NCBI GenBank assembly: GCA_965243025.1
Contig: CBDETY010000003.1
Coordinates: forward strand, 2,464,001-2,528,000
DNA: 64,000 bases
DNA from: Candidatus Latescibacterota bacterium
GTDB lineage: Bacteria; Latescibacterota; UBA2968; UBA8231
Direction of reading: 5' to 3'
The position numbers and the translations under genes were made by a program. Of the stretch, positions 11,179-56,694 are shown piece by piece; the stretch's first letter is position 1, and the number at the start of each line of letters is the position of its first letter. Below the pieces are notes generated by a model, which saw only the letters and a list, made by a program, of their open reading frames with translations, made no database searches and had not been told where the DNA came from.

Positions 11179-11408
11179 CCTTCCCACTCCCAGTGCCCGG
11201 AAAAGTCGCAGTTGACGATGTCGCCCTGGATGGTCATGCGCCCGCGCAGGCTCCCCAGCTCCCGCTTGCGTGGAGTCTCCCGATAGGGATCGACTGTCGC
11301 AATGGGACGCTTCCGCAAAGTGACGACGAGAGTTTCTCCCGTTTCGTGAACGGTCTTCAGCTCTTCGATGCACTTCGCCTTGAACTCGGAGATACCCATG
11401 GTTTTCAT
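11175..11408 (-). CDS. Phd/YefM family antitoxin
   Basis: 'MKTMGISEFKAKC...VHETGETLVVTLRKRPIA' is a Phd-like N-terminus, directly upstream of and coupled to the PIN toxin. Confidence 0.88.
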   Translation of the reverse strand: MKTMGISEFKAKCIEELKTVHETGETLVVTLRKRPIATVDPYRETPRKRELGSLRGRMTIQGDIVNCDFSGHWEWEG

Positions 11409-35877: not shown

Positions 35878-36042
35878 GGGATGTTCCTCTGGTTACGTCA
35901 CCGGGGGGAATCTAACGGCTCGTGCATGGCGCGGCGACCGTGCTGATCTTTTTGCACTCCCGGTGAAAAAGCCCATGCCGCCGAGGCCTGCACAGCGATG
36001 CGCAAGCGGGGCTGTCCGGGCCGGATCCGGGATCCTTCATCC

Positions 36043-40247: not shown

Positions 40248-41955
40248 CCCGGGCCGAAATCTCAGCCGTTGCCTGGCGGGAGCGGCGGCATGCCTCCTGG
40301 GGTTGGCGCCCCCGCTGGCGGCCAGCGACCTACCCGGGACCGGCGGCCGGGTGCAGTTTCGGGACGCGGCCCCCGAGCTCGGGGTGACCCTGAGGAACGT
40401 CTCCGGGGACGGGGAGCAGCAGTACGTCGTCGAATCCATGATGGGGGGATCCGCTTTCCTCGACCACGACGGCGACGGCGACCTTGACCTGTACGTCCTG
40501 AACGGATCGCAGGTCAGCGGTTTTCCCGAGGGCGGCCATCCCCGCAACGCATTGTACCGCAACGACAACACGGCGTTTGTCGAAGCGACCGGCGAGGCCG
40601 GGGTCGGGGACGCCAACTGGGGGATGGGCTGCGCCGTCGCCGATTACGACAACGACGGCGACCCGGATCTCTACGTGACCAACTACGGCGGGAACTCCCT
40701 CTACGCCAACCGGGGAGACGGGACCTTCGCCGACGTCTCCGCACCCGCAGGGGTCGCCGGGGAGGAACGCCGCTTCAGCACCGGGTGCGCCTTTTTCGAC
40801 TACGACCGGGACGGAGACCTCGATCTCTACGTCGCCAACTACGTCGATTTCTCGCATTTCATGGAAACGACCCCGGAAATGAGATACGAGTGGCGCGGAC
40901 TCACCGTCCACTTCGGGCCGCGCGGCATGCGCGGAGAGCCTGACTTTTTCTACCGCAACGACGGCGACGGGACTTTCTCCGATGCCACGGAAGCGGCCAA
41001 CCTCGTCGACCGCGAGATGCTCTACGGGCTCGGCGTGGTGGCGGGGGACTACGACAACGACGGCGACGCCGACCTGTACGTGGCCAACGACACCGGGGCC
41101 AACTACCTGTACGAAAACCAGGGGGACAGAACGTTCGCCGAGGTCGCCTGGCTGAAAGGGGCCGCCTTCGGCGAGAGCGGTGAGGCCCAGGGGTGCATGG
41201 GGATCGCCTTCGGGGACTACGACAACGACCAGTACCCCGACATCCTGGTCACCAACTTCTGGGAGGAGACCAACACCCTGTACCACAACGACGCGGGGGC
41301 GTTCTTCTCCGACCGCACCTTCGATGCGGGAGTCGGTATGGAGAGCTTTCAGTACCTGGCCTGGGGCACCGGTTTCTTCGACTACGACAACGACGGCGAC
41401 AGGGACCTGTTCGTAGCCAACGGCCACCTCTTCCCGCAACTGAACGGGGCCAACCTCGGAGTCGACTACGCCCAGACCAACCAGCTGTTCGAGAACGCGG
41501 GGGACGGGACTTTCAGGGAAGTGACCGGTGTTTCCGGACCCGGCCTTCAGATCGAAAAGGTGAGCAGGGGCGCCTCCTTCGGGGATTTCGACGGCGACGG
41601 CGACCTCGACATCTTCGTCCTCGACCTCAACGACTCACCCACCCTGCTGCGCAACGACGGGGGGAACCGCAACAACTGGCTGCTGGTGAAGACGGTCGGC
41701 ACCGAAAGCAACCGGGACGGCATCGGCGCGAAAGTAAAGGCCCGCTGCGGAGAGCTGGTCCAGATCAACGAGGTGCGAAGCGGCTCCAGCTACCTGTCGC
41801 AGAACGACCTGCGTCTCCACTTCGGGCTGGGCCGGTGTGCGGCGGTCGACGAGTTGGAGGTATCCTGGCCGAGCGGCCGGGAGGAGAGCTTCGAGGATAT
41901 TCCCGCCAACCAGGTCCTGACGATCCGGGAGGGCAGCGGGACCGTGCAACCCTGA
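40228..41955 (+). CDS. Secreted CRTAC1-family protein (FG-GAP plus ASPIC/UnbV)
   Basis: 'ESMMGG.AFLD.DGDGDLDLY', 'DYDNDG' repeats, 'SNRDGIGAKV...GSSYLSQND.RLHFGLG'. Confidence 0.9.
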   Translation: MSGRATSPGRNLSRCLAGAAACLLGLAPPLAASDLPGTGGRVQFRDAAPELGVTLRNVSGDGEQQYVVESMMGGSAFLDHDGDGDLDLYVLNGSQVSGFPEGGHPRNALYRNDNTAFVEATGEAGVGDANWGMGCAVADYDNDGDPDLYVTNYGGNSLYANRGDGTFADVSAPAGVAGEERRFSTGCAFFDYDRDGDLDLYVANYVDFSHFMETTPEMRYEWRGLTVHFGPRGMRGEPDFFYRNDGDGTFSDATEAANLVDREMLYGLGVVAGDYDNDGDADLYVANDTGANYLYENQGDRTFAEVAWLKGAAFGESGEAQGCMGIAFGDYDNDQYPDILVTNFWEETNTLYHNDAGAFFSDRTFDAGVGMESFQYLAWGTGFFDYDNDGDRDLFVANGHLFPQLNGANLGVDYAQTNQLFENAGDGTFREVTGVSGPGLQIEKVSRGASFGDFDGDGDLDIFVLDLNDSPTLLRNDGGNRNNWLLVKTVGTESNRDGIGAKVKARCGELVQINEVRSGSSYLSQNDLRLHFGLGRCAAVDELEVSWPSGREESFEDIPANQVLTIREGSGTVQP

Positions 41956-41961
41956 AGCGGG

Positions 41962-43629
41962 TCAACGGTCGGCGAGTGCGGCCGAGGCCGCCTCCTCGTT
42001 GACCGTCACCAGGGATTGGTAGCGCTCGCGCAGGGTTTCGAGGTATTCGTTGAATTCCTCCTTGTGCAGCTTGCGCCTCAGCTGTGACTGCGCCCTTTTC
42101 CTGGCCTCTTCAAAAGTTTCGCGTTTGCGCTCCCTCGACAGGACCTTGAAAACGGAGTAACCCTCCTGAACCGGGACGGGACCGGTCAGCACTCCGATCT
42201 CCGCCTCGACCACATGTTCGACAAAGCCGCCGAATTGTGGGGATTCGTGCTGGTGTACGTGGAAACGGCCTTCTTCGTCCCGCACCTCCCTCGAGCGGAT
42301 CGAGTGCCTGCCCGCCAGTTCCGCCAGCGAAGCCCCTTCCTCCACCAGCTCTGTCAGGCGCAACGCCTCCGATTCCGATTCAACGAGGATCTCCTGAACT
42401 TCGATCTGTTCCGGATGCAGGAATCTGTCGGCGTTGGCTTCGTAGTAGGCGCGGATGTCCGCTTCCGTAATGTCGACCCGCTCCATCAGGTGCTTTGCCC
42501 TGAGCCCCCTGACCAGCACCTGTTCTCCCTGTTCCTCGGCCCAGGCGACGAACTCCGGTTCGCTGTCGATTCCGCCACGGACCGCAGCCTCGACTATCAG
42601 GATGTCGGGAAGGACGTTCCTCTCGGCAAACGCGATTACCGTTTCCGCGCCGTCGAGGCTTGCCAGAACGTTCCTCCGGGAATCCTTTGCCACTTTGAGA
42701 AAGTCGGCGGCGGTAACCTCTCCCCCGTCGAAGCTGTAGAGAACCATGTCGAACGGGTCGTCGCCGCCTGTCCGCGCACCTCGCAGCAAGGCCTCGACGA
42801 ACTGCTTCATTCCATCCTGGTGCACCCGCAGCTTGTACTCCCGCTTCAGCTCTGCGACGACGGAGTCTCTCGCAGCCCGGAATTTCGCCTCCCGCAGCCC
42901 GCGGAGGGCCTGGGCTTTTTGCTGGGTGTTGAGGTCGACTGTGGTTTCGTCGAGGATCTTGAAAATCGCGTAACTCCGGCCGATCCGGATCGGCTCGGAT
43001 ACCTCTCCGAGGGCCAGGGGGAACAGTGCCTGTTCCAGGGGGAAAATCATCTGGCCCTTCATAACGTACCTGCCGACATCCCCGCCTCTGACGGCTGTCT
43101 CCCGGTTGGTCGAACGTTTCCGGGCGACCTCCGCGAAATCCGCCCCGGCCCTGATTTCCTCTACCGCGGCCTGTGCCGCTTCCAGGCCGGGGACCTTGAT
43201 GTCGGCGATTCGAATCGCCCTGTTGAGCCGCTCCTTATCTATGAAATCGTCCAGTTCGGCGTCGTCTACCGAAACCCGGATCGTGCGGTCTTCGAACAGA
43301 CCGAGGAGCTTTGCGCGCCGCGCCCTGTCCATCCGGGTGAGGTACGCGATGCTGTTGTCGAGTTCCTGGTTCCGGGCCTCGAGGAGCATCAGCTCCCTGT
43401 CGATCATGGTCCGCAGGTGGACCCGGCCCTGCTCCGCTCCGGGAGTTTCTTCCCCGGCCTTTTCGGAAAGGCCGGCGACGAATTCCCGCAGGTCCGCCGC
43501 GGTGATTACCCGCTCTCCCACCTGAGCAACCACCCCGCCATCATCCTGCGCGCAACTGCACAGGGAGAGCACCGCCAGGGGGACAACAGCTGCCAGCGAG
43601 CGAACCCCTGCTCGCTGGCGGTCGACCAT
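41962..43629 (-). CDS. SurA/PrsA-like foldase with two PpiC (parvulin) domains, possibly a lipoprotein
   Basis: 'VVAQVGER.IT', 'GADFAEVARKRS....RGGDVG', 'GEVSEPI', second 'QEILV....GASLAELAGRHS', 'GPVPVQEGYSVFKV'. N-terminal hydrophobic segment ending 'LCSC'. Confidence 0.85.
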   Translation of the reverse strand: MVDRQRAGVRSLAAVVPLAVLSLCSCAQDDGGVVAQVGERVITAADLREFVAGLSEKAGEETPGAEQGRVHLRTMIDRELMLLEARNQELDNSIAYLTRMDRARRAKLLGLFEDRTIRVSVDDAELDDFIDKERLNRAIRIADIKVPGLEAAQAAVEEIRAGADFAEVARKRSTNRETAVRGGDVGRYVMKGQMIFPLEQALFPLALGEVSEPIRIGRSYAIFKILDETTVDLNTQQKAQALRGLREAKFRAARDSVVAELKREYKLRVHQDGMKQFVEALLRGARTGGDDPFDMVLYSFDGGEVTAADFLKVAKDSRRNVLASLDGAETVIAFAERNVLPDILIVEAAVRGGIDSEPEFVAWAEEQGEQVLVRGLRAKHLMERVDITEADIRAYYEANADRFLHPEQIEVQEILVESESEALRLTELVEEGASLAELAGRHSIRSREVRDEEGRFHVHQHESPQFGGFVEHVVEAEIGVLTGPVPVQEGYSVFKVLSRERKRETFEEARKRAQSQLRRKLHKEEFNEYLETLRERYQSLVTVNEEAASAALADR

Positions 43630-43646
43630 GAAGAGAGTCGAAGCGA

Positions 43647-46358
43647 TCACTCGAGACCGGCGTATACCGTGGCGAAAGCCACACGACCGATCTGGGTCTC
43701 GTCGCCGATCGACCTGCGGGTGAGCCTCATGCCCATGTTCGTCGTCAGGCGGTATCCCAGGTAACTCCTGACATTGGAAAACTGCACGGCTCCGACGATC
43801 TCGGTGAAGTCGTCGAGCAGCCCCTCCTTGACGGCAATCTCGGAGTCCCGCATTTGGTTGAAGATCCCGTACTCGACTCCCGCCTGCATCGAAGAGGAGG
43901 AGAACAGGGGCCACCGCGCCAGCAACGACAGGAGCAGGGTGTTCTCCCGGCGTTCCGGGTCGGACCGCAGCGCCGGGGATTCCAGCCTCAGCTCGTTCTT
44001 TATCCTCGGCTGGATGTCGAAGTAGGCAATCTTGCGCTCGTAGTCGATTTTGTTGATGAGGCCGAAGAATGTGAAGTTGTCCCGCAGGTCCGGCTGTCTC
44101 TCGTTCTGGTGCCAGCGGTCGTACTTGAACTTGTTGATGATGTTTATGTTGGCCAGACCTGTGTATTTGAAACTTATGAACGAGGAGTTGATCCAGGTGT
44201 CCTGCGCCGCCAGCGGGTCGACGGTCGGGACGTTCCTTCTCTCGACCTCGCTCCACTGCCGCAGGTCGTTCTCGATGTTGTCCCTGGCGATACGGAAGTT
44301 CTCGAAGATCCTCAGCCTGCCGAGGCCGGGGTAGTCCTGCTCAAGGGCGAACAGGATGTAGTTGGTGGTGTTTTCACCGTCCCCGGCGATCAGTTCCTCT
44401 TCCGTCCTTCCAACCGTCAGCTTTACTCCCGGATAAAGGTCCGCCCCTCCGTAGACGTTGTACCCCCGGTGGTCCCTGGGGTAGGGGAAATCCGGCTCGT
44501 CGTCGTTCTCGAAGCGGTCGACCCAGATGTTGTTGTTCATGTCGATCCCGAACAGGAACTCCGGCCTGTCCGTGCCGTACCTCAGGAACGGCTCATTGTA
44601 GTCCGGGACGAGGTTGGGAAGGTCTTCGCTGTCGTTCTGGTTGAAGTCGGATATGAAATCGAGGTTTTCGTCGAACCCCGGAAATACCTCGACATCTATA
44701 TTCTCGAATATCCTCTGCCAGTCGGGGTAGCGGTCCTGGTCGTCGTTGTCGTCCACCAGTTCATAGTAGAATCGCGACTTGTCCGCGTAGTCGATATTGG
44801 TCTCCCCCCTGGCCATGATGACGCTGGTGTTGTAGTTGTGGTCCATGCTGTACGCCTCGCCGAAGAAATAGAAGGGGTGCGCGACCTTCGAGGCGTTTAC
44901 AATCCAGCCGTCCCCCTCGTCGGAGGCTCCGAGGTGGGTGGTTTGCGCCCTGTTGGGGTACTTCCGGTAACTGACGCTGCGGTCCCATTCTCCGTAGAAG
45001 TCGATCCCCCAGAGTCGGGTTGCTTCCAAGGTAAATCCGAATATTTCGGTGGCCGTGGGCAGACCGTACGGGATCTTGAGTACTGTCAGGTTGGAACCGT
45101 CCTGGACATTTGCTTCCGCCCGGGCGGCCACGAGGTAGACGTTCGCCCGCTGCCTGTCGAACTGGCGGTCTGAAGTCGTCTCGATACGGTAGTCGTTCGC
45201 CACCACGAGCTCGTGAGTCACCCTTCTGATCTCGGACGGATCAGGACCGGTGTACGATCCGATCGTGAAGTCGTAGACCAGCTCGATCTGCTCCGAGCCG
45301 CTCGCCTCCCAGAACCCGAGACGCTGGAAACCGCCTTGCGGAGCGGGAATCAGGCCGACGTCGCTGGCTCTCACCGTCTCTTTTTCAAAGCTGACATTCC
45401 CCTCAGTATCGATCTGCTCGGTTTCCGCCTCAATGATCAGGTCCCAGGCGAAGAGGGTGGCGCCTCCCTCGTTGTCCTCGGGTGAATCGTCGGAGAGGCG
45501 CACGAACACGCGGCTGACGTTCTCGGCGTTCTGGCTGGAGGCGATCGAGCCGCTGCGCGGGCTTCCCTCGAAAGCGTCGAGCAGCTGAAAGGAATTGTGG
45601 GCGCTGACGTAGTTTGCCCCGACCGTTACGGCGTCGCCGAGCTGGGCGGTCGCCCGCCCTCCGGTGAGCGTCGTCGAGCTCGTTGTCTGCTGGCTGGCCG
45701 GGTTTCGCGGCCCCGGCCCGCCCGGGGAGCTGACCCTGGACAGGAGCGCCGTCACCTCGTACTTGTCCGACTGGTAGTCGACCTGGATTCCGTCGAACGC
45801 CGGTTTCGAGAAGGACATCGGGGTCAGTGTCGAGCGGATTTCGTCCCCTATCGTTATGGCGAGGTTGTGCTGCCCCTTGACGTCGGAAGCTATAACCAAG
45901 TTGTTGAACCAGCTACCGAATTCCTCCGTCTTGAACAGGTTGCTTCCCCCCTGCTGGGGCTGCGTCTGGCTCCAGTCGTACACCAGCCATCCCTTGGTGA
46001 CGTACTTGCCGTAGATGTCGTAGAAGTAGTCTCCTTCCCGGGTGATTGACAAATAGCGTCTGTAATGATCGCGGGCGTAGTTGCTGTACTCCCACTGCTT
46101 CCACTGATACTCTCGAAAGAGCTCCTGGGGGACGTACCACTTCTTGACTGCCGGGTCGAGGGCTCCGAACAGCACCCCGGGGCCGGTCGGTTCGAAGGTG
46201 AGCTCACCGCCCCGGCGCACCCCCTTCATACGATCCGGATCGAAGGTTTGCGCCGTGGAATCGACGCTGAGAAGCAGCGAAATGGAGACAACGGCACAAG
46301 CTATGGCCGCGGTGCGGAGCTTCGCTGGCGCGACTCTGACTTCATGACCGGTCATCAT
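43647..46358 (-). CDS. Large hypothetical secreted protein, predicted outer-membrane beta-barrel
   Basis: Signal peptide; many alternating amphipathic strands (e.g. 'FTFFGLINKIDY', 'MQAGVEYGIF', 'YRLTTNMGMRL', terminal 'AFATVYAGLE'); Asp-rich loops. Confidence 0.7.
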   Translation of the reverse strand: MMTGHEVRVAPAKLRTAAIACAVVSISLLLSVDSTAQTFDPDRMKGVRRGGELTFEPTGPGVLFGALDPAVKKWYVPQELFREYQWKQWEYSNYARDHYRRYLSITREGDYFYDIYGKYVTKGWLVYDWSQTQPQQGGSNLFKTEEFGSWFNNLVIASDVKGQHNLAITIGDEIRSTLTPMSFSKPAFDGIQVDYQSDKYEVTALLSRVSSPGGPGPRNPASQQTTSSTTLTGGRATAQLGDAVTVGANYVSAHNSFQLLDAFEGSPRSGSIASSQNAENVSRVFVRLSDDSPEDNEGGATLFAWDLIIEAETEQIDTEGNVSFEKETVRASDVGLIPAPQGGFQRLGFWEASGSEQIELVYDFTIGSYTGPDPSEIRRVTHELVVANDYRIETTSDRQFDRQRANVYLVAARAEANVQDGSNLTVLKIPYGLPTATEIFGFTLEATRLWGIDFYGEWDRSVSYRKYPNRAQTTHLGASDEGDGWIVNASKVAHPFYFFGEAYSMDHNYNTSVIMARGETNIDYADKSRFYYELVDDNDDQDRYPDWQRIFENIDVEVFPGFDENLDFISDFNQNDSEDLPNLVPDYNEPFLRYGTDRPEFLFGIDMNNNIWVDRFENDDEPDFPYPRDHRGYNVYGGADLYPGVKLTVGRTEEELIAGDGENTTNYILFALEQDYPGLGRLRIFENFRIARDNIENDLRQWSEVERRNVPTVDPLAAQDTWINSSFISFKYTGLANINIINKFKYDRWHQNERQPDLRDNFTFFGLINKIDYERKIAYFDIQPRIKNELRLESPALRSDPERRENTLLLSLLARWPLFSSSSMQAGVEYGIFNQMRDSEIAVKEGLLDDFTEIVGAVQFSNVRSYLGYRLTTNMGMRLTRRSIGDETQIGRVAFATVYAGLE

Positions 46359-46401
46359 GTTGCTCTCCCTTGCCTTTCTAATTGCAGTAGACTGTGATTG
46401 A

Positions 46402-48123
46402 TCAATAAACCAAAGGCACTATTGCCGTCCTGCTCTCTGTTCCTGTATCCGCAGCGACCTCCACGCGCACCAGGTACACTCCTGGCGGCAACATCTGACC
46501 GCTGTCGTCCGCTCCATCCCAGGTTCGCCGGTATCTCCCGCTGGCTTCGGGACCGGAATGGATCACCCTTCTCAGTCTCCCGTTCAGGTCGTACACCTCC
46601 ACCGCCACAGGGGTACCGCTCGTGAGGTTGACGATGTCGTAGGAAATCGCGGCGAGTTCGTTTACCCCGTCCCCGTTGGGCGTGAACGGCGCCGGCACCG
46701 CTTCCAGGGCATGAATGATGTTCTTTGCGATCACGATCGTGACCGACAGGTCGTCCCCGAGGGCAAGCTCATCATCGGCCGCATCTCCCGACCTGATCTC
46801 CTGCGGGAGGTCCTGCGGCCTCTGACTGTTGAAAACCCTCCCGGAAAAAACCGTGTTGTACTGCAGGGCGATACTTTCGAAGACGACTCTCAGGGTGCTG
46901 TTCCCGGAAACACCGGGAAACCGGATCTCCACGCCGCCGTCGATGTCGAACTTCTCGAACTCGACTTCCGAGCCGTTTATGGATACCGAGCTGACCGCCT
47001 CCACCGGTGCCTGCGTCTCGATGTGCAGACGATCGAAGCCGAGGCTGTTGAAGCTCCTTACGGTGTAAACCAGCTCGGTCGCTTGCCCGATCATGGCATT
47101 CTGAGGCCAGATCTCCCCCAGCAGCGAGTCGGCGAGGGCGGGGGCAACCTCCACGGCGATTGAATCGACCGTTGCAGCCGACAGGATGTCGCTGCTGGCG
47201 AAGTTCAGCTGAAACTGCCAGTACTGATTCGGCGCCGGCGAGGTAATCCTGTTCGGGATTCCCGCAGGATATGGGGGAGACCATCCGCTCCAGGTGGTAT
47301 CGGTCGGCACCTCGGTACTGCCGCTGCGGGTCGCCAGGGTCACCCCTACCTTGGTCGGTTCCCCGATTGTGTCGCTTGCCCAGGTTACCTGGCCGAACAC
47401 CGCCGGGGCGCCCTGATTGAACACGTTCGAGGTGTACTGGGCGGCCGAGGCGAAACCTTCCCCGAAGATCTCGAATTCGTCGATCTCCCACTCCCCTCTC
47501 ACCAGTTGTTTCACCTCGATGTAGCGGACGTATTGAAGCGGGACCGGCAGGTCGACTACCGGATCGACGTTCCGCTCCACCGTCTTGAAGAGCCTGTAGT
47601 CCGGTGTGCCGGAAAGGGTCCGCTGCTCTTCGCTGCCGTCGTTGAGCGACACCTCGTACCCCTTGAGGAAGTATTCCTGGAATCCCTCTCTCGGGAAGAA
47701 GCGAATCCTGTTGACCCCGAAGCGCTCGCCCAGGTCGATCCTGAAGATGATGCCCGTTGCCGAAGGAATCTTGATCTCGAAGGCCCTGTCCCTGCCGTCG
47801 ACCATGTAGGTCAGAAGCTTGTCCAGGTCGGACTGGGATACTTCGAGCACTACCCTGGCGTTGGGGGAGGAAATGGTTCCCCCCTGCTCGATCAGTTTCA
47901 GGGAAATGTTGTCTTCGGGGCCGGTCTGGGCGGGTTGAATGAACCCGGGATTGGTCTCGAAGTCGATAACCGTCAACTCCGAATAGTTTTCCTGCCATGC
48001 CCGGGACCCCGGGCCGCCTCCGAAAACGACCGTCTCGGAATCGCCCGTCGAGGCGAGCCCGAACACCAGGGGAGCAACAGCGGGCCAGAGAACCGCCTTT
48101 TTCAATGATTTCCCGACTTTCAT
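46402..48123 (-). CDS. Secreted discoidin-like/Ig protein with FlgD-Ig C-terminal domain
   Basis: Signal peptide, 'IDLGERFGVNRIRFFP', 'TRSG...WSGWSPPY', 'GEIWP', 'FTPNGDGVNE...YDLNGR...WDG.D...PPGVY', ends 'VPLVY'. Confidence 0.85.
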   Translation of the reverse strand: MKVGKSLKKAVLWPAVAPLVFGLASTGDSETVVFGGGPGSRAWQENYSELTVIDFETNPGFIQPAQTGPEDNISLKLIEQGGTISSPNARVVLEVSQSDLDKLLTYMVDGRDRAFEIKIPSATGIIFRIDLGERFGVNRIRFFPREGFQEYFLKGYEVSLNDGSEEQRTLSGTPDYRLFKTVERNVDPVVDLPVPLQYVRYIEVKQLVRGEWEIDEFEIFGEGFASAAQYTSNVFNQGAPAVFGQVTWASDTIGEPTKVGVTLATRSGSTEVPTDTTWSGWSPPYPAGIPNRITSPAPNQYWQFQLNFASSDILSAATVDSIAVEVAPALADSLLGEIWPQNAMIGQATELVYTVRSFNSLGFDRLHIETQAPVEAVSSVSINGSEVEFEKFDIDGGVEIRFPGVSGNSTLRVVFESIALQYNTVFSGRVFNSQRPQDLPQEIRSGDAADDELALGDDLSVTIVIAKNIIHALEAVPAPFTPNGDGVNELAAISYDIVNLTSGTPVAVEVYDLNGRLRRVIHSGPEASGRYRRTWDGADDSGQMLPPGVYLVRVEVAADTGTESRTAIVPLVY

Positions 48124-48177
48124 TTCACCACAGGCTCCTGTTACATGTCGCGACGGGCGAATGCCGCCCATCGCCGG

Positions 48178-50835
48178 TCAATACGCGAGGTGCACCAATC
48201 GATGGGCCGAGCTGTTCTTGCCCGACTTGTCGTCGACGTCCAGGTCGATGCGCACGAGGTAGATGCCCGGGGGCGCCAGCCCGCCCGAGCCGTCCCTGCC
48301 GGTCCAGGTCACCTTGTGGCGGCCCGCCTCCTGCGAGTCGTCGCTCAAGCGGCTCACGAGGCGGCCGCTCAGGTCATACACTTCCACCCGAACCGGGGCG
48401 GCCCTTCCCACCCGCATCAGCGAATACCCGACCTCCAGGGCGTCGTTGACGCCGTCCCCGTTCGGCGTGAAACTGGCGTCGATCTCCAGGTCGCCCAACA
48501 GCTCCCCCTGCTCCAGCGCCAGCACCACCGTCGTCTCGCTGTCGTTGACCCCGTTGGCATCCCCGTCATCCACCCGCTGCCACGAGTTCGCGAACTCCGA
48601 GTGGCCCGTCGAGCCGATGAAGTAGGTGTTGTATGCGAAAATCGTCGCTTCGAACGCGACCTCGACCAGCACCGACCCGCTCGTCGTCTTGAGCGCTTCG
48701 GGAAAACGCACCCACAGCGAGTCCGACTCGTTGCGAACCACCTCGAAGCCGTCGCTGCCGGGCGTGTAGGTCACCGCTTCCCGGCCGGTGACGTTCACCT
48801 GCGCCTGCTTCAGCGACATCTCCACCCCGTCGGGCGCCTCGATGAGCACCTCGTCGAACCCCCGGCTGCCTTCCTCGAAGGTCGAGCGCACGAAGTAGGA
48901 CAGCTTCTGGCGGCGGCCGATCTCCTCCAGACGGGACGGCAGCACCTCCCCCAGGATGGCCCCGGCCACCGGCGTCACGAAGTTCAGCGCCAGCGAACGC
49001 AGCGTCGCCGAGGCCATCGGGTCTTCCGTCAGGAACGTCGCCCGGATCGACACGTAGCGGCGCGGACTCGGCGAGGTGATCTTTTCGCCCGGCTCGAAGT
49101 ACGGCTGGCTCCAGCCGCTCCAGTCGGGACCCGGAATGGTCTCGGTGACGGCCGGACCGACCGAGCTCTCGCCGAAAAGGTCCTTGTCGCTGTTGTAGGC
49201 TTTGGCCGCTTCCTCTTCGGTGCCGGGGTATACATCCCCGTTCTTCTTGTAGTAGTGCGTGATCTTCTGCACCGTGTCGCCAGAGCGCGTCTGGATGATC
49301 AGCTGTGTACCTGGCGGAGTATCGGCGTCCCATTCGATCGTCGACAGGTTCTGGGGAAGATCGCCCAGCTCGATGTACGGCGACTCCCCTGCGAAAACCG
49401 ACTCGATGCTGGATTCAGGCATGAACCCCTCGCCGAAAAACTGGATCTCCGACAGGCCGTGCCGCCCCGCCCTCTCGAACAGCCGGTAGGTGAAAGCGAA
49501 ATGTTCCACCTTGGACAGCGGAAACTTGAAGTCGTGATACGTTTCCCCCCCCCCGATGTTGCGGAGCGACCCGACCGTCTTCCACGCGAGCTCGCCTCCG
49601 GCATTGGTCGACCCGTCCGACAACTGAATCCGGTAGGCGCGAAAGGGCCCCGGCGGGCTGGTGGCTGATGAAAGCACCCGGATATTGTCGAGGAAGAAGG
49701 ATCCGCCGAGATCGATGAACAGCGAGCGCTCGACATCCGGCGGGTCCGAAATCGGCAGCCTGTCCGGATTGTAGCCGCCCTGGGCGGGCCAGTACACCAC
49801 CTCCCCGAAGAAATCCCCATCCACGACAGACCCCTCGGCCCCGTTGTTTTCCCAGCTCTTTGCGCTGCCGCCCCGCTCCAGCACCCCGGTGCCGATGTTG
49901 TCGCCGATCGCCCAGACCTCTACCTCCGCCAGCCTGGGAAGCTCGCGGCGGTAATGGACCACGGGCCCCTGTCTTCCGGAACTCTCCAGCACCTCCCAGT
50001 CCTCCCTTCCATCCAGCAACCAGACTTTTCCGGAGACCTCCCGCCGAAAGTACTCGATGTCTCCCTGAAGGCCGGTGGGAAGACTCTCGTAGACGGACTG
50101 CGAAACCTCCCTCGCCTTGCCGAAATCGCTGTCGGTGATGCCGACTCCGACATAGCGGATCACGTCCCCCGTGAAGTCGCCGTGCACGTTCGGCCACTTG
50201 GTGGGCAGCTGCCTGGTAAGGTCGATCTCGAACACCCGTTCGTTCTTGACCGGTCTGTTCGTGGTGAAGCGGGTTCGGTACAGCAGGGGACCGATGGTGG
50301 TTTCTCCCTGTGAGGTGGTCACCTTGAACTGCAGAAAGGGATCGCCCAGATCCTCGTCGACGAACTTCAGCACGATACGGGTGGCCGATACCGTCCTCCC
50401 CAGGTCGATCTGCACCCACCAGTCCTGGAGCGGGTCTGACACGTCCGGTTCCCACCAGGTGTCCATGCGGCCGTCCATCAGGTCGAGTGCGCCTGAAATA
50501 TTGGAGCCGGCATCCCTTATCCCGCCGCCGAACTCCGCGAAATCGAGAACGGCATTGATTCCGGGAACCACTACTTCCCTGCCATCGATGTCGAGAACGG
50601 TGCTTTTGCGGATGAACTCCGGCCGCACACCCTCGTCGCCGACCTGGATCGTTCCGGCAACCGAATGCCAGCGCTCCCAGTGCTCCCTCGAGTCGACAAC
50701 CACCCTTTCGGAATCGAGGGAATACCCTTCCTGGCTCCGGCCAACCCCCGACGAACCGAGGGTGATAACCGGGAGAAACAGGACTGTCCTAATTGACACG
50801 GCAGAAAATGCCGATCGACTCATGGCCGTTGCCAT
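48178..50835 (-). CDS. Secreted double discoidin-like/Ig protein with FlgD-Ig C-terminal domain
   Basis: Signal peptide, 'DG...TWWEP...WWVQIDLGR', second 'IDLGGSFFLDNIRV', 'WSGWSQPY', 'FTPNGDGVND', ends 'VHLAY'. Confidence 0.88.
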   Translation of the reverse strand: MATAMSRSAFSAVSIRTVLFLPVITLGSSGVGRSQEGYSLDSERVVVDSREHWERWHSVAGTIQVGDEGVRPEFIRKSTVLDIDGREVVVPGINAVLDFAEFGGGIRDAGSNISGALDLMDGRMDTWWEPDVSDPLQDWWVQIDLGRTVSATRIVLKFVDEDLGDPFLQFKVTTSQGETTIGPLLYRTRFTTNRPVKNERVFEIDLTRQLPTKWPNVHGDFTGDVIRYVGVGITDSDFGKAREVSQSVYESLPTGLQGDIEYFRREVSGKVWLLDGREDWEVLESSGRQGPVVHYRRELPRLAEVEVWAIGDNIGTGVLERGGSAKSWENNGAEGSVVDGDFFGEVVYWPAQGGYNPDRLPISDPPDVERSLFIDLGGSFFLDNIRVLSSATSPPGPFRAYRIQLSDGSTNAGGELAWKTVGSLRNIGGGETYHDFKFPLSKVEHFAFTYRLFERAGRHGLSEIQFFGEGFMPESSIESVFAGESPYIELGDLPQNLSTIEWDADTPPGTQLIIQTRSGDTVQKITHYYKKNGDVYPGTEEEAAKAYNSDKDLFGESSVGPAVTETIPGPDWSGWSQPYFEPGEKITSPSPRRYVSIRATFLTEDPMASATLRSLALNFVTPVAGAILGEVLPSRLEEIGRRQKLSYFVRSTFEEGSRGFDEVLIEAPDGVEMSLKQAQVNVTGREAVTYTPGSDGFEVVRNESDSLWVRFPEALKTTSGSVLVEVAFEATIFAYNTYFIGSTGHSEFANSWQRVDDGDANGVNDSETTVVLALEQGELLGDLEIDASFTPNGDGVNDALEVGYSLMRVGRAAPVRVEVYDLSGRLVSRLSDDSQEAGRHKVTWTGRDGSGGLAPPGIYLVRIDLDVDDKSGKNSSAHRLVHLAY

Positions 50836-50840
50836 GCCGG

Positions 50841-53531
50841 TCAGTACGCCATGTGCACCAGTTTATGGACCGAGCTGTTCTTTCCCGACTTGTCGTCGAC
50901 GTCCAGGTCGATGCGCACGAGGTAGATGCCCGGAGGCGCCAGGCCCCCCGAGCCGTCCCTGCCGGTCCAGGTCACCCGGTGGCGCCCCGCCTCCTGCGAG
51001 TCGTCGCTCAAGCGGTTCACCAGGCGGCCGCTCAGGTCATACACCTCCACCCGCACCGGGGCCGCCCGGCCCACCCGCATCAGAGTATACCCCACCTTCA
51101 GCTCCTCGTTGACGCCGTCTCCGTTCGGCGTGAAGCTGCGGTCGATCTCCAGGTTCCCCAGCAGCTCTCCAGGCTCCAGAGCCAGCACCACCGTCGTCTC
51201 GCTGTCGTTGACCCCGTTGGCATCCCCGTCACTCACCCGCTGCCACGAATCGGCGAATTCCGAATGACCCGTCGAGCCGATGAAGTAGGTGTTGTACCCG
51301 AATATCGTCGCCTCGAAATCGATCTCGACCAGCACCGAGCCGCTGGTCGACTTGATCGCTTCGGGAAAGCGCACCCACAGCGAGTCCGACTCGTTCTTCA
51401 TCACCTCGAATCCCTCGCTGCCGACCGTGTACGTTACGGCGTCCTGCCCGGTCACATTCACCTGCACCTGCTTCAGCGACATCTCCAACCCGTCCGGCGC
51501 CTCGATGAGCACCTCGTCGAACCCCCGGCTGTTTTCCTCGAAGGTCGAGTGCAGCAAGTAGGACAGCTCCTGCTTCCGGCCGATCTCTTCCAGGCGCGAC
51601 GGCAGCACCTCTCCAACGATTACTCCGGCCACCGGCGTCACGAAGTTCAGCGCCATGGAACGCAGGTTCACCGCCGCCATCGGATCCTCCGTGAGAAAGG
51701 TCGCTCTGACGGCGACGAACTTGCGCGGACTCGGGGAGGTGATCTTGTCGCCCGACTGGGAATACGGCTGGCTCCAGCCGCTCCAGTCGGGGCCTGTAGC
51801 CGCTTCCACGACGATGGGGCCGACCGAGCTCTCGCCGAAAAGGTCCTTGTCGCTTTCGTACGCTTTGGCCGCTTCCTCTTCGGTGCCCGGGTACTCATCC
51901 CCGTTCTTCTTGTAGTAGTGCTTGATCTTCTCCACCGTGTCGCCCGAGCGCGTCTGGATGATCAGCTGGGTAGCGGGCGGGATATCGGCCTCCCACTCGA
52001 TCGTCGAAAGGTTCTGGGGAAGTTCCCCCAACTCGATAAACGGAGACTCACCTTCGAAAACGGACTCGATAATCGATTCGGGCATGAACCCCTCGCCGAA
52101 AAACTGGATCTCCGACAGGGCGAACGAGTCCGCGTAGATTTGAACGGCGCTCGACCCATCGTTCGGCCACAGCCTGTAGGTGAAGGAAAAGTATTTCGCC
52201 TTCGTCAGCGGAAACTCGAAGTTGTTGTAACGCTGGCTGTTGGGGGAGGTAGTGATGTCGAGACCTGAAACCGATGCCACGGTCCGCCATTCCAGGGCGC
52301 CGCCGGCATTGGTGGAGCCGTCCGACAGCTGAACCCGGTATTCGGGAACGGGGTTTGTCCAGAAAGTAAGGGGGGCCTGCTGCAGCACGCGGATGTTGTC
52401 GAGAAAGAAAGCGCCCCCGAGATCGATGATGAGCTGGCGTTCCTGGTCCAGGGGCACCGTGGGTGCAATGAGGTCCGGATTGAAACCTCCCAGGCCGGTC
52501 CAGTACAGCACCTCCCCGAAAAACCGCCCGTCTACCAGCGCCCCTTCAGTGCCGTTGTTGTCGACACTCGTCACCGTGCCCCCGCGAGGCAGTACGCCGG
52601 TGCCGATGTTGTCACCGATCGACCACACCTCGATCTCGGCCAGCCTGGGCAGCTCGCGGCGATAGTAGACCACTTTCCCCTGGCTGCCGGTGCCTTCGAG
52701 GGCATCCCAGTCCTCCTTGCCCCCTCGGAGACGCAGCTCCCTTCCCGAAGCATCTCTGCGGAAGTACTCGATGTCCCCCTGCCGGTCGGGTGGCAGACTC
52801 TCGTATACGGCCTGGGGTACCTCCCGGCCTTTGCCGAAATCGCTGTCCGTCACGACGACACCGATGAAGTCGATGATATCCCCCGTGAAGCCCCCGGTTG
52901 AATTCGGCCATTTCGTCGGCGGTTGCCTGGTCAGGTCGATTTCGAACACGCGCTCGGTCTTGACCGGTTGTTTGGTGGTGAAGCGGGTCCGGGTCACGTA
53001 GGGGCCAACGGTAGTCTCTCCCTGGGAGGTGGTAACCTTGAAGTGGAGAAAGGGGTCTCCGAGGTCGTCGTCGACGAACTTGAGGACGATCTTGGTGGCC
53101 GAAACCGAGCGGCCCAGATCGACCTGGATCCACCAGTCCTGTACGGGGTCGGAGAGGTCGGGCTGCCAGTACGTGCTCAGGTCGCCATCGGTCACGTTGA
53201 GGGCGTCGAACCGGTTCGATCCAACGTCCAGGATTCCACCGCCGAAATCCGCGGCGTTGAGCATGGCGTTGATCCCGGGAACCGTTACTTCCTCTCCCTC
53301 TACCTCCAGCGTGGTGCTCTTGCGTATATACGCCGGCAGCACCCCCTCCTCGGTGATCTGCATCGTGTTGGCCGAGAACTTCCACTGCTCCCAGTTTCCC
53401 TTCGAATCGATCACCACCCTGCCAGGCTCGAGGGTAAACCCCTCCTGTCCCGAACTTCCCGCCGCCGCCAACAGGACGACCGGAATGCCGCGCGCCGCTA
53501 TTCGAAGGCCTGCTTCAAACGCCGATCCCAT
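50841..53531 (-). CDS. Secreted double discoidin-like/Ig protein with FlgD-Ig C-terminal domain (tandem paralog of 48178-50835)
   Basis: Same motif order as the neighbour, near-identical C-terminal half, ends 'VHMAY'. GAGGAG RBS. Confidence 0.88.
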   Translation of the reverse strand: MGSAFEAGLRIAARGIPVVLLAAAGSSGQEGFTLEPGRVVIDSKGNWEQWKFSANTMQITEEGVLPAYIRKSTTLEVEGEEVTVPGINAMLNAADFGGGILDVGSNRFDALNVTDGDLSTYWQPDLSDPVQDWWIQVDLGRSVSATKIVLKFVDDDLGDPFLHFKVTTSQGETTVGPYVTRTRFTTKQPVKTERVFEIDLTRQPPTKWPNSTGGFTGDIIDFIGVVVTDSDFGKGREVPQAVYESLPPDRQGDIEYFRRDASGRELRLRGGKEDWDALEGTGSQGKVVYYRRELPRLAEIEVWSIGDNIGTGVLPRGGTVTSVDNNGTEGALVDGRFFGEVLYWTGLGGFNPDLIAPTVPLDQERQLIIDLGGAFFLDNIRVLQQAPLTFWTNPVPEYRVQLSDGSTNAGGALEWRTVASVSGLDITTSPNSQRYNNFEFPLTKAKYFSFTYRLWPNDGSSAVQIYADSFALSEIQFFGEGFMPESIIESVFEGESPFIELGELPQNLSTIEWEADIPPATQLIIQTRSGDTVEKIKHYYKKNGDEYPGTEEEAAKAYESDKDLFGESSVGPIVVEAATGPDWSGWSQPYSQSGDKITSPSPRKFVAVRATFLTEDPMAAVNLRSMALNFVTPVAGVIVGEVLPSRLEEIGRKQELSYLLHSTFEENSRGFDEVLIEAPDGLEMSLKQVQVNVTGQDAVTYTVGSEGFEVMKNESDSLWVRFPEAIKSTSGSVLVEIDFEATIFGYNTYFIGSTGHSEFADSWQRVSDGDANGVNDSETTVVLALEPGELLGNLEIDRSFTPNGDGVNEELKVGYTLMRVGRAAPVRVEVYDLSGRLVNRLSDDSQEAGRHRVTWTGRDGSGGLAPPGIYLVRIDLDVDDKSGKNSSVHKLVHMAY

Positions 53532-53554
53532 TTCGTATCTCCTCGATTCGCAGA

Positions 53555-55498
53555 TCAGTACGCGACCGAAACAATCCCGCTGCTGATCTCGTTCTCCAGG
53601 TTCACGTCTGCATCTATCCGGTACAGGTACAACCCCGGGGGAACAATGCCGTTCGAATCGTCCGTTCCATCCCAGGTGTACGCGTACTGTCCGATGGGAT
53701 CCACCCCGGAATGCACCTGTTTTACCAGGCGGCCGGACAGGTCGAAGATCTCAATCGATACGGGAATCCCCGAAGTGACCCGCAACAAGGTGTAAGAGAT
53801 GTTGACGACGTCATTCACTCCGTCCCCGTTGGGAGTGAACGGGTTCGGCGAGACAGAAGGAGAAAACAGGAGCGAACGGCTCAACGAGGTCCTGATTGCA
53901 ATCCCGTCACTCGGGATCTCGTCGATTGCGTTGCCCGGCACAATCCGCTGGCGGACCTCCAGGGGTTTCAGCGTATCGAACACTCTGCCGTCGAACCGCG
54001 TTCCCACCTCTCTGAACACCGGGGCCGTGAAAACCACTTCGACAATCGTGCCGTTGTCGGACTGCTCCAGCCGGCGCGGAAGGAGCACTTCGAAACCGCG
54101 CCCGTCTTCTCTGACCCTCCATGTGAAATCGTCCTGGTTGACCGCGTCAATGCGCAGCGAATCGACGGATACCACCCCCGAGGGAGTGGAGATCTCGACG
54201 CCGTCGAACCCGCCCGCACCGGCGGGGATCGTCGGGCTGAAGTAGTAGGTGAACCGGGTCGGTTCCCCCACTGTAGTTTCCAGCGGAAAAACCTCCCCCA
54301 CCAACTCGCCGACCAATGGCGGAGATGATGCCTCGAACTGGATGTAATCGATATTGCCCCCGTCCTCGACGGTCGATGCGAAATCCGCCCTGATCTGAAC
54401 GTATCTCCGGGGCCCGGGAGATATGAAAGCCACACCGGGATTCTCGAACTCGTACGGACTCGACCAGAAGCTCCAGTTTTCGGTGTCGAAGGACACCTTG
54501 TCCCCATAGTTCACCGGTTTGTATATGTCCTCGAGCCTGCCGTACTTGTTCTTGTATTCCGTCAGGGTCAGGTCTCCTCCGCCGTCGAGGTAGCGGATGC
54601 TGTCCTGCTGTTCCGGACGGGTTTCCCAGAAAACCACCGGGTGGGGATCGAGTCCTGCCCTGGTCCGGATGGCGATCTGAGCGTTGGGGTCCCGTCCTCC
54701 CGCCCACGTGATTTCGCCCAGGCTGGCGATGTCATCCAGCTCGATCACGTCGGATTCGTACGCCGCCGGGGTGACGAAGCCGCCTCCGTACACCTCGAAA
54801 GAAGCCAGCCCGATCTCCTTGAGGGTCTGACGGCTGATCCGCAGCTGCAGCGCGTCGGTCGTTATCGGGGGCTCGAAGATCACGCTGACTTCAGGTTCGA
54901 AATTCTCCTTGATTTCGGCGACCACGGGGAAATTCGGGACCGAGTTTCCGTGGCGGAAGCCCCGGTCGCTGGCACCGATGACGAATTTCTCGAGAAAGTG
55001 CTCAGGCTTGTCGGGCAGGGGCCGGAACCGCACTTCATGGATCAGGAACCGACCACCGAGATCGACCGTCAGCTGCTCGCTGCGTGAACGAGCGGCATCG
55101 AAGCTCTCCGGGGCTATCGCCACCCAGGTATACGAGGTCGTCTCGTCTCCATCGACGAGCACCCTGGGGGCCAGCCGGTCGATATTGGCGAAGTCCCGCA
55201 CCCCGATCCACCCGTCCCTGTCGAGGAGCGTCCCGGCGATATCTTCCCCATCGTCGATGAAATTGGGCTGCAGCGACCCTGTCTGAAGAGAATCCGGCTC
55301 GAGCGCCTCTCCAAGCTGAAGCGGCAGCCAGTCGACTTCCCTGAAATCGATACCCAGCCCTCCGAGACTGTCCCTTTCAGCCGCGGAAAAGGGGGCCCCG
55401 ATGCGGTAGATGGTGAGACCCGATGCCTGTTCGGCGAGGAACAGGCACCCGAAAACGGAGGTGATCGAAAGCAATCGCGATAATCTCTCAAAAGACAT
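53555..55498 (-). CDS. Secreted discoidin-like/Ig protein with FlgD-Ig C-terminal domain
   Basis: Signal peptide from ATG 55498 (GAGGT RBS), 'VDLGGRF.I..VRF.P', 'RTRAG...WSFWSSPY...SPGPRRYVQ', 'GEVFP', 'PNPFTPNGDGVND', ends 'VSVAY'. Confidence 0.86.
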   Translation of the reverse strand: MSFERLSRLLSITSVFGCLFLAEQASGLTIYRIGAPFSAAERDSLGGLGIDFREVDWLPLQLGEALEPDSLQTGSLQPNFIDDGEDIAGTLLDRDGWIGVRDFANIDRLAPRVLVDGDETTSYTWVAIAPESFDAARSRSEQLTVDLGGRFLIHEVRFRPLPDKPEHFLEKFVIGASDRGFRHGNSVPNFPVVAEIKENFEPEVSVIFEPPITTDALQLRISRQTLKEIGLASFEVYGGGFVTPAAYESDVIELDDIASLGEITWAGGRDPNAQIAIRTRAGLDPHPVVFWETRPEQQDSIRYLDGGGDLTLTEYKNKYGRLEDIYKPVNYGDKVSFDTENWSFWSSPYEFENPGVAFISPGPRRYVQIRADFASTVEDGGNIDYIQFEASSPPLVGELVGEVFPLETTVGEPTRFTYYFSPTIPAGAGGFDGVEISTPSGVVSVDSLRIDAVNQDDFTWRVREDGRGFEVLLPRRLEQSDNGTIVEVVFTAPVFREVGTRFDGRVFDTLKPLEVRQRIVPGNAIDEIPSDGIAIRTSLSRSLLFSPSVSPNPFTPNGDGVNDVVNISYTLLRVTSGIPVSIEIFDLSGRLVKQVHSGVDPIGQYAYTWDGTDDSNGIVPPGLYLYRIDADVNLENEISSGIVSVAY

Positions 55499-55689
55499 GG
55501 ACGCTACCTCTTCGAGGGCTCGAAGCCGCACGGACTTCGGCCGTTTCGTCAGCAATAAGCAACTCGATATGCGACCGGCACAAGGCCGGTGTTCGTATCA
55601 AACAGGCATTCGCCGACGGTCCTGGATCCACAGGTGGGACAGCCCCCCTTTTTCCGAGGCCGTCCGGTTCGCAAAATGCCCCCGGGCGG

Positions 55690-55734
55690 AAAACAGAAAA
55701 GGGGGCGGAGAAATCCGGGATCTCTCCGCCCCCT
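55690..55734 (-). terminator. Intrinsic terminator after the CBM9/DOMON-like gene
   Basis: Perfect 12-bp stem AGGGGGCGGAGA (55700-55711) / TCTCCGCCCCCT (55723-55734), followed on the minus strand by a TTTCTGTTTT tract. Confidence 0.88.
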
Positions 55735-55770
55735 CGGTTTCAAGCTATCTCCTACAACAGAAGCTTTTGT

Positions 55771-56694
55771 TCAGTTGGAGAAGCTTTGCTTGATACGGGC
55801 CCAGCTGTCCTCCTCGACAGCGGTGGCCACGTTCTCTCCGGGAACCCACCAGTCCTCGTTGTAGCCGAGGAACACGTAGTCGACCATGGCGGTTGCCTTG
55901 AAGTAGATCTCGGTGTCGCCGCTGTTGGTCCAGTACCCGTTGTAACGGCCTTCGGCTCCGTCATCGTCGTCCTGAACGGAAAAGCCGACGCCCATGATCT
56001 CACCCTCTTGGATGGTGTGGAAGATGATCCTGTCGTCGTCCGGTCCCGTCGAGTTGGTGGGCAGATCGTTGAACGGAGTGAACCACATCTCCATGTAGAG
56101 AGTGGTCGGGCCCCCGACCAGCTCGCCTTCGTAAGACCACCTTACGCCCGAATGCGGCTCGGTGCCGGCCCACGGAGCACCACCCCAGATCCACATCTCG
56201 TTGGGGGCCCCTTTGTTGAGCTGGTAGCGGTAGTTCTGCGAGAGGGCGCCTTCCCACCTCTCGGGATCCAGACCTTCAGACTGCACGTTCTGGAAGATCG
56301 GGTCGGCGCTGTGGTCGAAGTCGAGCATCACTTCGAGGGTGTCGAAGTTGTTGTCGATGGTTCCGTAGAAGAAGTCGTCGAACTTTTCCTCCATGACATA
56401 GAGGAAGTTGGTCACCGGACTCCATCCGAAAATGATGCGCTCGGCGAGGTTGCCGGGATCCGGGTCGCCCTGCGTGCCGGTGACGGTCTCGACGAGGTCA
56501 TCGTGGGTTACCCAGAAGGCGGAAGGAACGTTGTCCCAATCGCCGAGATCTCCGTCCATCTCGACATCCCTGATCCCGTCCACGTTGATCGGAACCTGGA
56601 CAGCGGCCCAGTTCCTGTCGGTGCGCAGGTGGGCTGAGCCCGCCACGGCCATGACCAGAACCAGCCCGATTGCTGAAGCGAGAATCCTTTTCAC
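55771..56694 (-). CDS. Secreted CBM9/DOMON-like protein with short C-terminal 'TAVE..SW..IK' motif
   Basis: GTG start with a strong GAAAGGAG RBS; signal peptide 'KRILASAIGLVLVMAVAGSA'; 'MDGDLGDW', 'GWS...N.LY', 'D.LEV..D.DHS', 'G..MG.G..V.D.D'; ends 'TAVEEDSWARIKQSFSN'. Confidence 0.8.
   Translation of the reverse strand: MKRILASAIGLVLVMAVAGSAHLRTDRNWAAVQVPINVDGIRDVEMDGDLGDWDNVPSAFWVTHDDLVETVTGTQGDPDPGNLAERIIFGWSPVTNFLYVMEEKFDDFFYGTIDNNFDTLEVMLDFDHSADPIFQNVQSEGLDPERWEGALSQNYRYQLNKGAPNEMWIWGGAPWAGTEPHSGVRWSYEGELVGGPTTLYMEMWFTPFNDLPTNSTGPDDDRIIFHTIQEGEIMGVGFSVQDDDDGAEGRYNGYWTNSGDTEIYFKATAMVDYVFLGYNEDWWVPGENVATAVEEDSWARIKQSFSN

Follow-up and report, generated by a model that had tools for sequence, protein, structure and literature searches.

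In the Bacteroidota, the gene for a type B cargo protein of the T9SS (type IX secretion system) is commonly followed by a porP/sprF-like gene, and a PorP-type barrel anchors such cargo, according to the parts of two articles that deal with these genes (PMC12618676; PMC9143113). For Fibrobacter succinogenes, the relevant sections of PMC6851124 present an envelope model with T9SS-tagged enzymes, TPR proteins and TonB/ExbB/ExbD import, in which the barrel goes unnamed. The locus considered here is a module of seven genes on the minus strand of a 64,000-nucleotide stretch (the window) from a Candidatus Latescibacterota bacterium (assembly GCA_965243025.1, contig CBDETY010000003.1, positions 2,464,001 to 2,528,000). 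In order of transcription, it encodes a CBM9-like protein, four paralogous proteins (P1 to P4), a giant outer-membrane barrel of 903 residues and a foldase. The module is real, conserved and multicopy, and lies outside every family against which it was tested. Its function has to be read from its parts and neighbours, and the preferred interpretation, with a rough probability of 0.45, is a capture-and-uptake complex in which lectins delivered by the T9SS cap the barrel, with parts unlike those of SusC/SusD.

Like T9SS type B systems such as SprB-SprF and PG1035-PorP-PorE, the module has TPNGDG.N/CHU_C tails and a barrel gene directly downstream, in a genome that encodes SprA, PorU and the PorV family. 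PorP/SprF proteins (PF11751, TIGR03519), however, have only about 300 residues, whereas the barrel here has 903, with some 24-26 strands and no PorP match. Each locus encodes three cargo subtypes along with a CBM9-like protein and a foldase, which type B loci do not, and the cargo tails, whose last residue is Tyr or Phe, do not reach the cut-offs of TIGR04131 and TIGR04183; GldM and GldN were not found in the genome. With SusC/SusD utilisomes and polysaccharide utilization loci (PULs), the module shares its recurrence at many paralogous loci of one genome, where one or two large barrels are combined with surface proteins that are non-catalytic and glycan-binding-like. In contrast to SusC, the barrel matches neither PF00593 nor a plug domain (the 27 PF00593 matches of the genome lie elsewhere) and has more strands in its model; no SusD match was found among the seven proteins, and the binders bear T9SS-type tails rather than lipid anchors. 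The Fibrobacter model also places a T9SS outside the Bacteroidota beside ExbB/ExbD-driven import through an unnamed barrel, but the Fibrobacter cargo is catalytic, and the two barrels are compared by description only.

Chaperone-usher systems differ as well, since no usher or PapD Pfam match was found and the chaperone is of the parvulin type. Deinococcus SlpA (7zgx, 8ae1, 8agd), MtrB (6r2q), FimD/PapC and LptD are barrels of a similar size class, but identities are 6-12%, root-mean-square deviations (rmsd) 5-8 or more and Z-scores not above those of generic porins; unlike MtrB and the ushers, the barrel has no detected cytochrome partner or usher domains. Pfam, NCBIfam, PDB profile and fold searches thus map the locus onto neither PorP/SprF nor SusC/SusD, and the scans of the seven proteins against Pfam and NCBIfam agree with a sequence-only reading of the window, which had seen no PorP, SusC/TonB or SusD motifs. 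Because it failed membership in the PorP/SprF, SusC/SusD and usher systems, the module is counted as a new kind. No description of it was found in a literature search that left most subscription journals and supplementary gene tables outside, and the keyword passages of PMC7081726, PMC3174227, PMC12204202 and PMC6851124 do not describe the barrel family.

Layout and parts of the module

The seven open reading frames lie at 41962-56694, at the place and in the order given by the sequence-only reading. With the starts used here, the intergenic gaps along the module are 272, 23, 5, 54, 43 and 5 bp, and the last six genes are as tightly packed as had been claimed; for the foldase, one of two other starts is more probable, either GTG 43650, where the gene would overlap the stop of the barrel, or ATG 43629. 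All seven proteins appear to carry export signals, judged by eye and by N-terminal hydropathy without a signal-peptide predictor. After the CBM9-like gene, where a terminator had been noted, comes a terminator-like minus-strand hairpin (55699-55735) of 17 pairs, 10 of them G-C, with a T-rich tail, which is a consensus match only. The terminator scan as a whole gave 11 sites against 15.5 in shuffled sequence, and this hairpin is therefore marked out only by its long stem and its position.

The giant barrel (43647-46358, minus strand) had been predicted to be a membrane barrel, and an AlphaFold2 model of the mature 903-residue protein, based on an alignment of 127 sequences, takes that form (pLDDT 83.9, pTM 0.81). 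The model is made of long alternating strands, about 24-26 as read from the DSSP string rather than from the coordinates. It suggests a beta-sandwich inserted at mature residues 221-397 and an Asp/Asn-rich loop at residues 469-594, both of which would face outward if the strands are counted from the C-terminal end; confidence is low over the first 70 residues, which are aromatic. The Asp/Asn loop is the most conserved region of the barrel (0.58-0.73 per 30 residues from 481 to 600, in 53 non-redundant rows), whereas the C-terminal wall reaches only 0.38-0.59 in the same rows.

The window's barrel has no Pfam or NCBIfam match at E 0.1, its profile finds nothing among PDB sequences at E 10, and the Atlas puts it among unnamed clusters only. 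(DUF6029, an Atlas lead at 0.88, was dropped as an identity, its single weak match in the genome being a different protein.) Fold searches return generic barrels, with Z-scores of 9-14 that are common to many unrelated barrels, and a new fold is not thereby shown. Deinococcus SlpA is the top Foldseek match (E 1.5e-6 to 3.9e-6) and gives the longest alignment among the matches listed (422 residues), at a TM-score of 0.15-0.20 and an rmsd of 7.7 to >20. MtrB has the best TM-score (0.28, 409 residues aligned), and the ushers FimD/PapC are found too (Z 10-13, rmsd 5-7, 312-338 residues aligned). The family is large, with 1222 clusters at 50% identity (E up to 0.001) and about 40 genes in this genome, and neither a name, a structure nor a description was found for it.

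P1 to P4 all carry the motifs that the sequence-only reading had listed (TR[SA]G, WS.WS.PY, GE[IV].P and TPNGDG.N), and Pfam finds FlgD_ig and CHU_C in all four and F5/8 domains in P1-P3. By clade, they belong to three subtypes, all on the minus strand. P1 (53555-55498, 647 residues) is of the alpha subtype, with a discoidin-like domain (F5_F8, E 9e-4), beta-sandwiches and a T9SS-type tail (CHU_C 37.9 bits, FlgD_ig 35 bits). P2 (50841-53531, 896 residues), of the beta subtype, has two discoidin stretches (F5_F8, 45.5 bits over both), beta-sandwiches and a similar tail (CHU_C 27.9, FlgD_ig 40.8). P3 (48178-50835, 885 residues), also beta, is a tandem duplicate of P2: the two are 72% identical, the remaining pairs 28-29%. 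It aligns to the P4 family across its C-terminal 548 columns.

P4 (46402-48123, 573 residues) represents the gamma subtype and was modeled with AlphaFold2 (pLDDT 91.9). In the model, residues 41-193 form a domain like those of CBM32/discoidin folds (Z 14-15, rmsd 2.2-2.9), inserted in a beta-sandwich; the sandwich itself is similar to domains of phage tails and of PNGase (Z ~11.5). An immunoglobulin (Ig) domain resembles YcnI (Z 11.6), and residues 437-544 the C-terminal domain of PorU (6za2; Z 12.7, rmsd 2.5). No catalytic domain appears in the model, and a viral fold library gave nothing specific (TM up to 0.22). Against CHU_C, the tails of P1-P4 score 27.8-37.9 bits, above the cut-off of 27; against TIGR04131 they score 17.7-28 (cut-off 35) and against TIGR04183 19-21.4 (cut-off 23).

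The CBM9-like secreted protein (55771-56694, minus strand, 307 residues) has no Pfam or NCBIfam match and is named from its Atlas neighbours (scores 0.92-0.95), of whose members 13-100% bear PF06452 CBM9_1. It belongs to a barrel-linked subfamily, 11 of whose 15 genes lie inside barrel loci; a second subfamily comprises about 70 further genes in tandem arrays, mostly off the barrels (4/72 in barrel loci). Its last ~17 residues (55774-55824, minus strand) form a tag of the TAVExxSWxxIK type. Among 4888 genes called with a simple, purpose-made codon model (for which starts and small genes are rough), this tag occurs within the last 22 residues of 95, namely 74 CBM9-like and 21 other genes, and outside the tail in only 3. 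It matches no Pfam or NCBIfam family and, on this recurrence, is a candidate for an undescribed second sorting signal. The foldase (41962-43650, minus strand, ~560 residues) is SurA/PrsA-like, with two parvulin domains and a lipobox-like Cys; its Pfam matches are Rotamase_2, Rotamase and SurA_N_3.

Copies in the genome and in relatives

The barrel had been called an orphan. This holds in that its family is unnamed, but not in that it stands alone: the 6.8-Mb genome has 42 barrel matches, comprising 30 full-length core barrels, 10 full-length remote barrels that form a clade of their own, one truncated copy and one fragment. The genome also has 17 foldase genes and 91 strong P-family genes (28 alpha, 28 beta, 13 gamma and 22 other). 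All 13 gamma genes, 20 of the 28 beta, 14 of the 28 alpha and 12 of the 17 foldase genes lie inside barrel loci, with 14 alpha and 8 beta genes outside; of 84 weakly matching proteins, mostly of other FlgD-Ig-tail types, none does. A gamma gene stands directly upstream of 11 of the 30 core barrels. Since large loci each tend to hold every subtype, the P proteins look like the subunits of a fixed heteromer and not like an assortment of variable cargo. One beta-subtype gene away from any barrel, at window 2762-5305 (C3:2466762-2469305 in the numbering used for genome-wide positions), is present as two open reading frames of 533 and 291 residues and looks split.

The block is less GC-rich than its flanks (0.614 versus 0.672 and 0.645), as had been noticed by eye. 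However, the gene families of the module are GC-poorer throughout the genome (barrels 0.634, other genes 0.674), which makes the low value weak evidence for recent transfer, and recent horizontal transfer was set aside.

Is the gene set conserved elsewhere? The relatives are metagenome-assembled genomes, most of them labelled Candidatus Latescibacterota or Gemmatimonadetes/Gemmatimonadota. Among 33 GTDB loci examined, 19 hold close orthologs of the barrel, and 13 of these, from 10 genomes, have the full order CBM9-(alpha)-beta-gamma-barrel-foldase, with alpha (P1) present in 8 and evidently optional. Contig ends truncate four of the other six; in the fifth, the order is rearranged and the beta gene fragmented, and the flank of the sixth shows no foldase. 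Gamma lies directly upstream of the barrel in 28 of the 33 loci, and four of the rest are cut by contig ends. Conversely, for the best 36 P4 matches outside this genome (27 genomes), a listed barrel lies within 1.2 kb downstream in 35.

The set also co-occurs across the phylum. In 151 genomes, which are kin and in which single-protein queries can miss distant members, the barrel was detected in 94, whereas 80 gave a match to the body of P4 and 75 one to the foldase. The barrel is found in all 63 genomes of the same family and in none of 56 from families f2, f3, f4 and f8; in f2, f3 and f4, barrel, gamma and foldase go undetected together (0/51 each), and families that bear the foldase also have barrel and gamma matches. 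Family f10 has distant barrels only, a P4 match in 1 of 13 genomes and no foldase. Relatives have up to about 89 rough barrel candidates per genome. Three genomes (G060, G086 and G147) have 45-84 rough candidates whose best scored matches are distant, with at most one weak P4 match and no foldase match; apparently, these barrels are a separate expansion of a distant clade.

One sponge metatranscriptome contained 7% of the sampled words, and its contigs cover parts of the CBM9-like gene, P1, P2, P3, P4 and the barrel at ~90-98% identity. Contigs of this kind cannot show transcription, strand or level, so the match is not counted as expression.

The T9SS, flanking genes and motor-linked loci

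T9SS core genes are indeed present elsewhere in the genome. SprA, PorU and the PorV family pass their NCBIfam cut-offs (TIGR04189, 603 against 200; NF033707, 615 against 420; NF033709, 223 against 90), while the PorV equivalog model scores 147, below its cut-off of 250; further PorV/Q-like barrels are encoded as well. The PorU-PorV-family pair and SprA lie at C3:3584234-3589178 and 6660325-6666387, the SprA gene about 5 kb from another barrel locus. SprA occurs in 143 of the 151 genomes, including barrel-less ones, and in 62 of the 63 family genomes, and the giant barrel is therefore an accessory to SprA and not a substitute for it. PorP_SprF (PF11751), on the other hand, was found in none of the 63 family genomes, with weak matches in 29 of the 151, despite ~90 T9SS-type tails in this genome. 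The giant barrel holds the porP/sprF position, directly after a tail-bearing gene in the cargo-then-SprF order. GldN and GldM (GldM_1st) were not found in the genome by searches in which no control genome passed the cut-off, and GldK and GldL were not searched genome-wide. A separate locus, C3:3502052-3510366, encodes a CBM9-like protein, a lipoprotein, a 288-residue PorV/PorP-like barrel below all cut-offs, TPR, ExbB, ExbD and a DUF4159-like protein, the small barrel taking the place held elsewhere by remote giant barrels. This locus is a candidate motor for the T9SS, for which no GldM or GldN was found.

The seven-gene core stands as the sequence-only reading had delimited it, but flanking genes also belong to the module. 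These are two associated ASPIC/UnbV FG-GAP (CRTAC1-like) genes (37986-41955, plus strand), a third upstream of the module on its own strand (57026-58630, minus), and two associated genes for DUF6785/DUF6784 membrane proteins, the first of them multi-pass (35998-37986 and 59709-61691, both plus), all identified by Pfam. The DUF6785 protein has no PDB or NCBIfam match. In the genome, 23 of 46 ASPIC and 16 of 52 DUF6785 genes have a core barrel no more than 15 kb away, against a background of 5.5%. When 16 barrel loci were compared (two of them adjacent and sharing neighbours), ASPIC was present within 8 kb at 11 (random 13%) and DUF6785 at 10 (random 18%). Neither clusters at TonB-dependent receptors (1/46 and 4/52, background 10.5%). 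Genomes without the barrel have ASPIC genes too, mostly in fewer copies; two such genomes had 1 and 0.

An unbiased screen of 94 neighbour families (at least 6 members each, within 20 kb of core barrels, background 8%; labels partly by eye) confirmed ASPIC and DUF6785 and added TPR, MFS-spermidine-synthase and some unnamed families. A GHL10-like family was borderline (5/26, p 0.05). A first impression of catabolic neighbours failed in this screen. A family of ~611 residues is enriched near core barrels (6/14); a 611-residue protein at window 34042-35877, with no Pfam, NCBIfam or PDB match, would belong to it according to the neighbour listing.

Loci of the remote barrels are organized differently. 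In five such loci, a membrane-anchored DUF4159 gene lies within 6 kb in all five, a gene for a TPR protein of 1050-1090 residues in four and ExbD in two. At C3:6172432-6202001, CBM9 and a discoidin-tail protein are encoded together with two remote barrels, TPR, ExbB and two ExbD, lipoproteins, a homolog of the window foldase, an FGE-like protein, DUF4159 and a 660-residue membrane protein. The membrane protein at C3:6191192 compares with DUF6785 at a probability of 16%. Given these shared parts, the window cassette resembles a multiplied relative, devoid of a motor, of a locus linked to one.

Capture, display or export

What would such a module do? Folds, composition, synteny, co-occurrence and T9SS core genes are predicted by computational tools, and from these we infer binding, transport, chaperoning, Sec export, SprA passage and energy source. 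All subunits would first pass the inner membrane by Sec, as their N-termini suggest. The lipoprotein foldase, judging from its family and its co-occurrence, would escort the barrel, the beta-sandwich subunits or both across the periplasm. P1-P4 would then leave through the cell's single SprA translocon by virtue of their T9SS-type tails, given the predicted tail fold and the predicted SprA. At the surface, they would dock on the giant barrel rather than on a small PorP/SprF protein, gamma being the fixed partner to which beta and, optionally, alpha are added, and the CBM9-like protein may join this lectin cap by its own short tag. Most speculatively, the cap would bind ligands, either glycans or others that are host-derived or dissolved organic, and the wide barrel would let them pass; ExbB/ExbD motors from the remote-barrel loci may supply the energy in trans, and the DUF6785 proteins would act as inner-membrane carriers. 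Docking of the P proteins as a lectin cap is probable. A predicted complex of the barrel, the P4 tail (428-544) and four calcium ions scored 0.00 with controls not folded, which speaks neither for nor against binding.

The sequence-only reading had proposed a lineage-specific surface complex with its own chaperone, and synteny, the barrel model and the lack of a known match support this part; its choice between uptake and display is only partly decided. The capture-and-uptake reading draws on the fixed composition and gene order of the loci, the joint absence of barrel, gamma and foldase from f2, f3 and f4, the lack of PorP_SprF in the family, the CBM32-like domain and PorU-like tail of P4, the size of the barrel, the ASPIC and DUF6785 genes near core barrels and the motor-linked remote loci. 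In addition, rough barrel counts across 60 related genomes correlate better with DUF6785 (rho 0.82) and ASPIC (0.84) than with genome size (0.44). Several observations weigh against uptake. Unlike in PULs, enzyme families for degradation show no enrichment around the barrels: in the 94-family screen, neither enolases (8/70), sulfatases (4/26) nor oxidoreductases were enriched, and neither were PhyH-like or Gfo/Idh/MocA-like proteins. No TonB plug family matched, the two TonB_C genes of the genome are not near barrel loci, and core-barrel loci are without motor genes, except for one barrel ~12 kb from an ExbB/ExbD set. DUF6785, a family without known function, is also abundant in barrel-less families (137/151 genomes), and the count correlations are overstated, since the 60 genomes are kin. 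That the outer loop is so conserved fits binding of one invariable protein more readily than of diverse substrates. Finally, when tails are compared across subtypes, pairs from one locus are no more similar (identity 0.366, 59 pairs) than pairs from different loci (0.363, 724 pairs; permutation p 0.25), so that no locus-specific address was found. Conserved tail motifs are reported to be insufficient for specificity, in the part of PMC12618676 concerned with them, and the absent signature therefore weakens the pairing of barrel and cargo without excluding it.

Display alone is the possible alternative that survives best, although it is judged less probable than uptake. The barrel would then be an analogue of PorP/SprF that receives the tail proteins from SprA and anchors them as lectin adhesins for attachment to host or particle, and nothing would be imported. 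It draws on the missing enrichment of degradative enzymes and the conserved Asp/Asn loop, on the cargo-upstream-of-barrel gene order, on the type B motif TPNGDG.N with CHU_C above the Pfam cut-off in all four proteins and on the lack of the PorP family in 63 family genomes, and it has a precedent in PorP-type anchoring in the Bacteroidota, as far as described in the pertinent part of PMC9143113. Yet DUF6785 membrane proteins are enriched nearby, a sister clade of barrels is motor-linked, and the tails lack the locus signature. The size of the barrel counts against display as well. PorP and PorV barrels have 14 strands and TonB-dependent receptors 22; with 24-26, the barrel seems far larger than a docking role needs.

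Usher-like export, in which the P subunits would be delivered by the foldase to a barrel that threads them and assembles them into a surface fibre or cap without SprA, is improbable. A chaperone, a wide barrel and Ig-like lectin subunits are co-encoded, FimD/PapC are among the fold matches, and GldN and GldM were not found in the genome, all of which would suit it; but unrelated barrels match just as well as the ushers, P4 is modeled with complete domains and with a tail of the T9SS type, SprA is kept throughout nearly the whole family (62/63), and the foldase is not PapD-like. Explanations other than those considered here are given a still smaller share. That the barrels are SlpA-like structural porins, bulk components of the envelope or S-layer with their neighbours as decorations, is scarcely credible, since SlpA's first place in Foldseek and its long alignment come with the low TM-scores and high rmsd given above, no SLH or SlpA_C Pfam match was found, and one abundant structural protein would not be expected as ~40 diverged paralogs spread over separate cassettes, with fixed partners.

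Capture and uptake thus remains the preferred interpretation. Its stronger form, a new class of uptake machine that fills the role of SusC/SusD with a plug-less wide barrel, three lectin types, a tagged CBM9-like protein, its own foldase and an in-trans ExbB/ExbD-TPR-DUF4159 motor, in tens of copies, is doubtful. If the barrel does import, it offers an explanation of feeding in an uncultured marine lineage, and expression of the paralogs could report substrates. If it serves for display only, the module would be a variant of T9SS anchoring, showing that outside the Bacteroidota the T9SS relies on another kind of anchor and perhaps on another motor. Either way, there would be a new type of outer-membrane barrel and a candidate new sorting tag.

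Two other features of the window are of minor interest. A protein of 1147 residues at 17726-21169 combines LamG/pentraxin and WD40 domains with a FlgD-Ig tail and is likely an ordinary T9SS cargo, unlinked to the module. At 10777-11408 lies a small gene pair whose N-termini resemble, by eye, those of a PIN-domain toxin-antitoxin pair.

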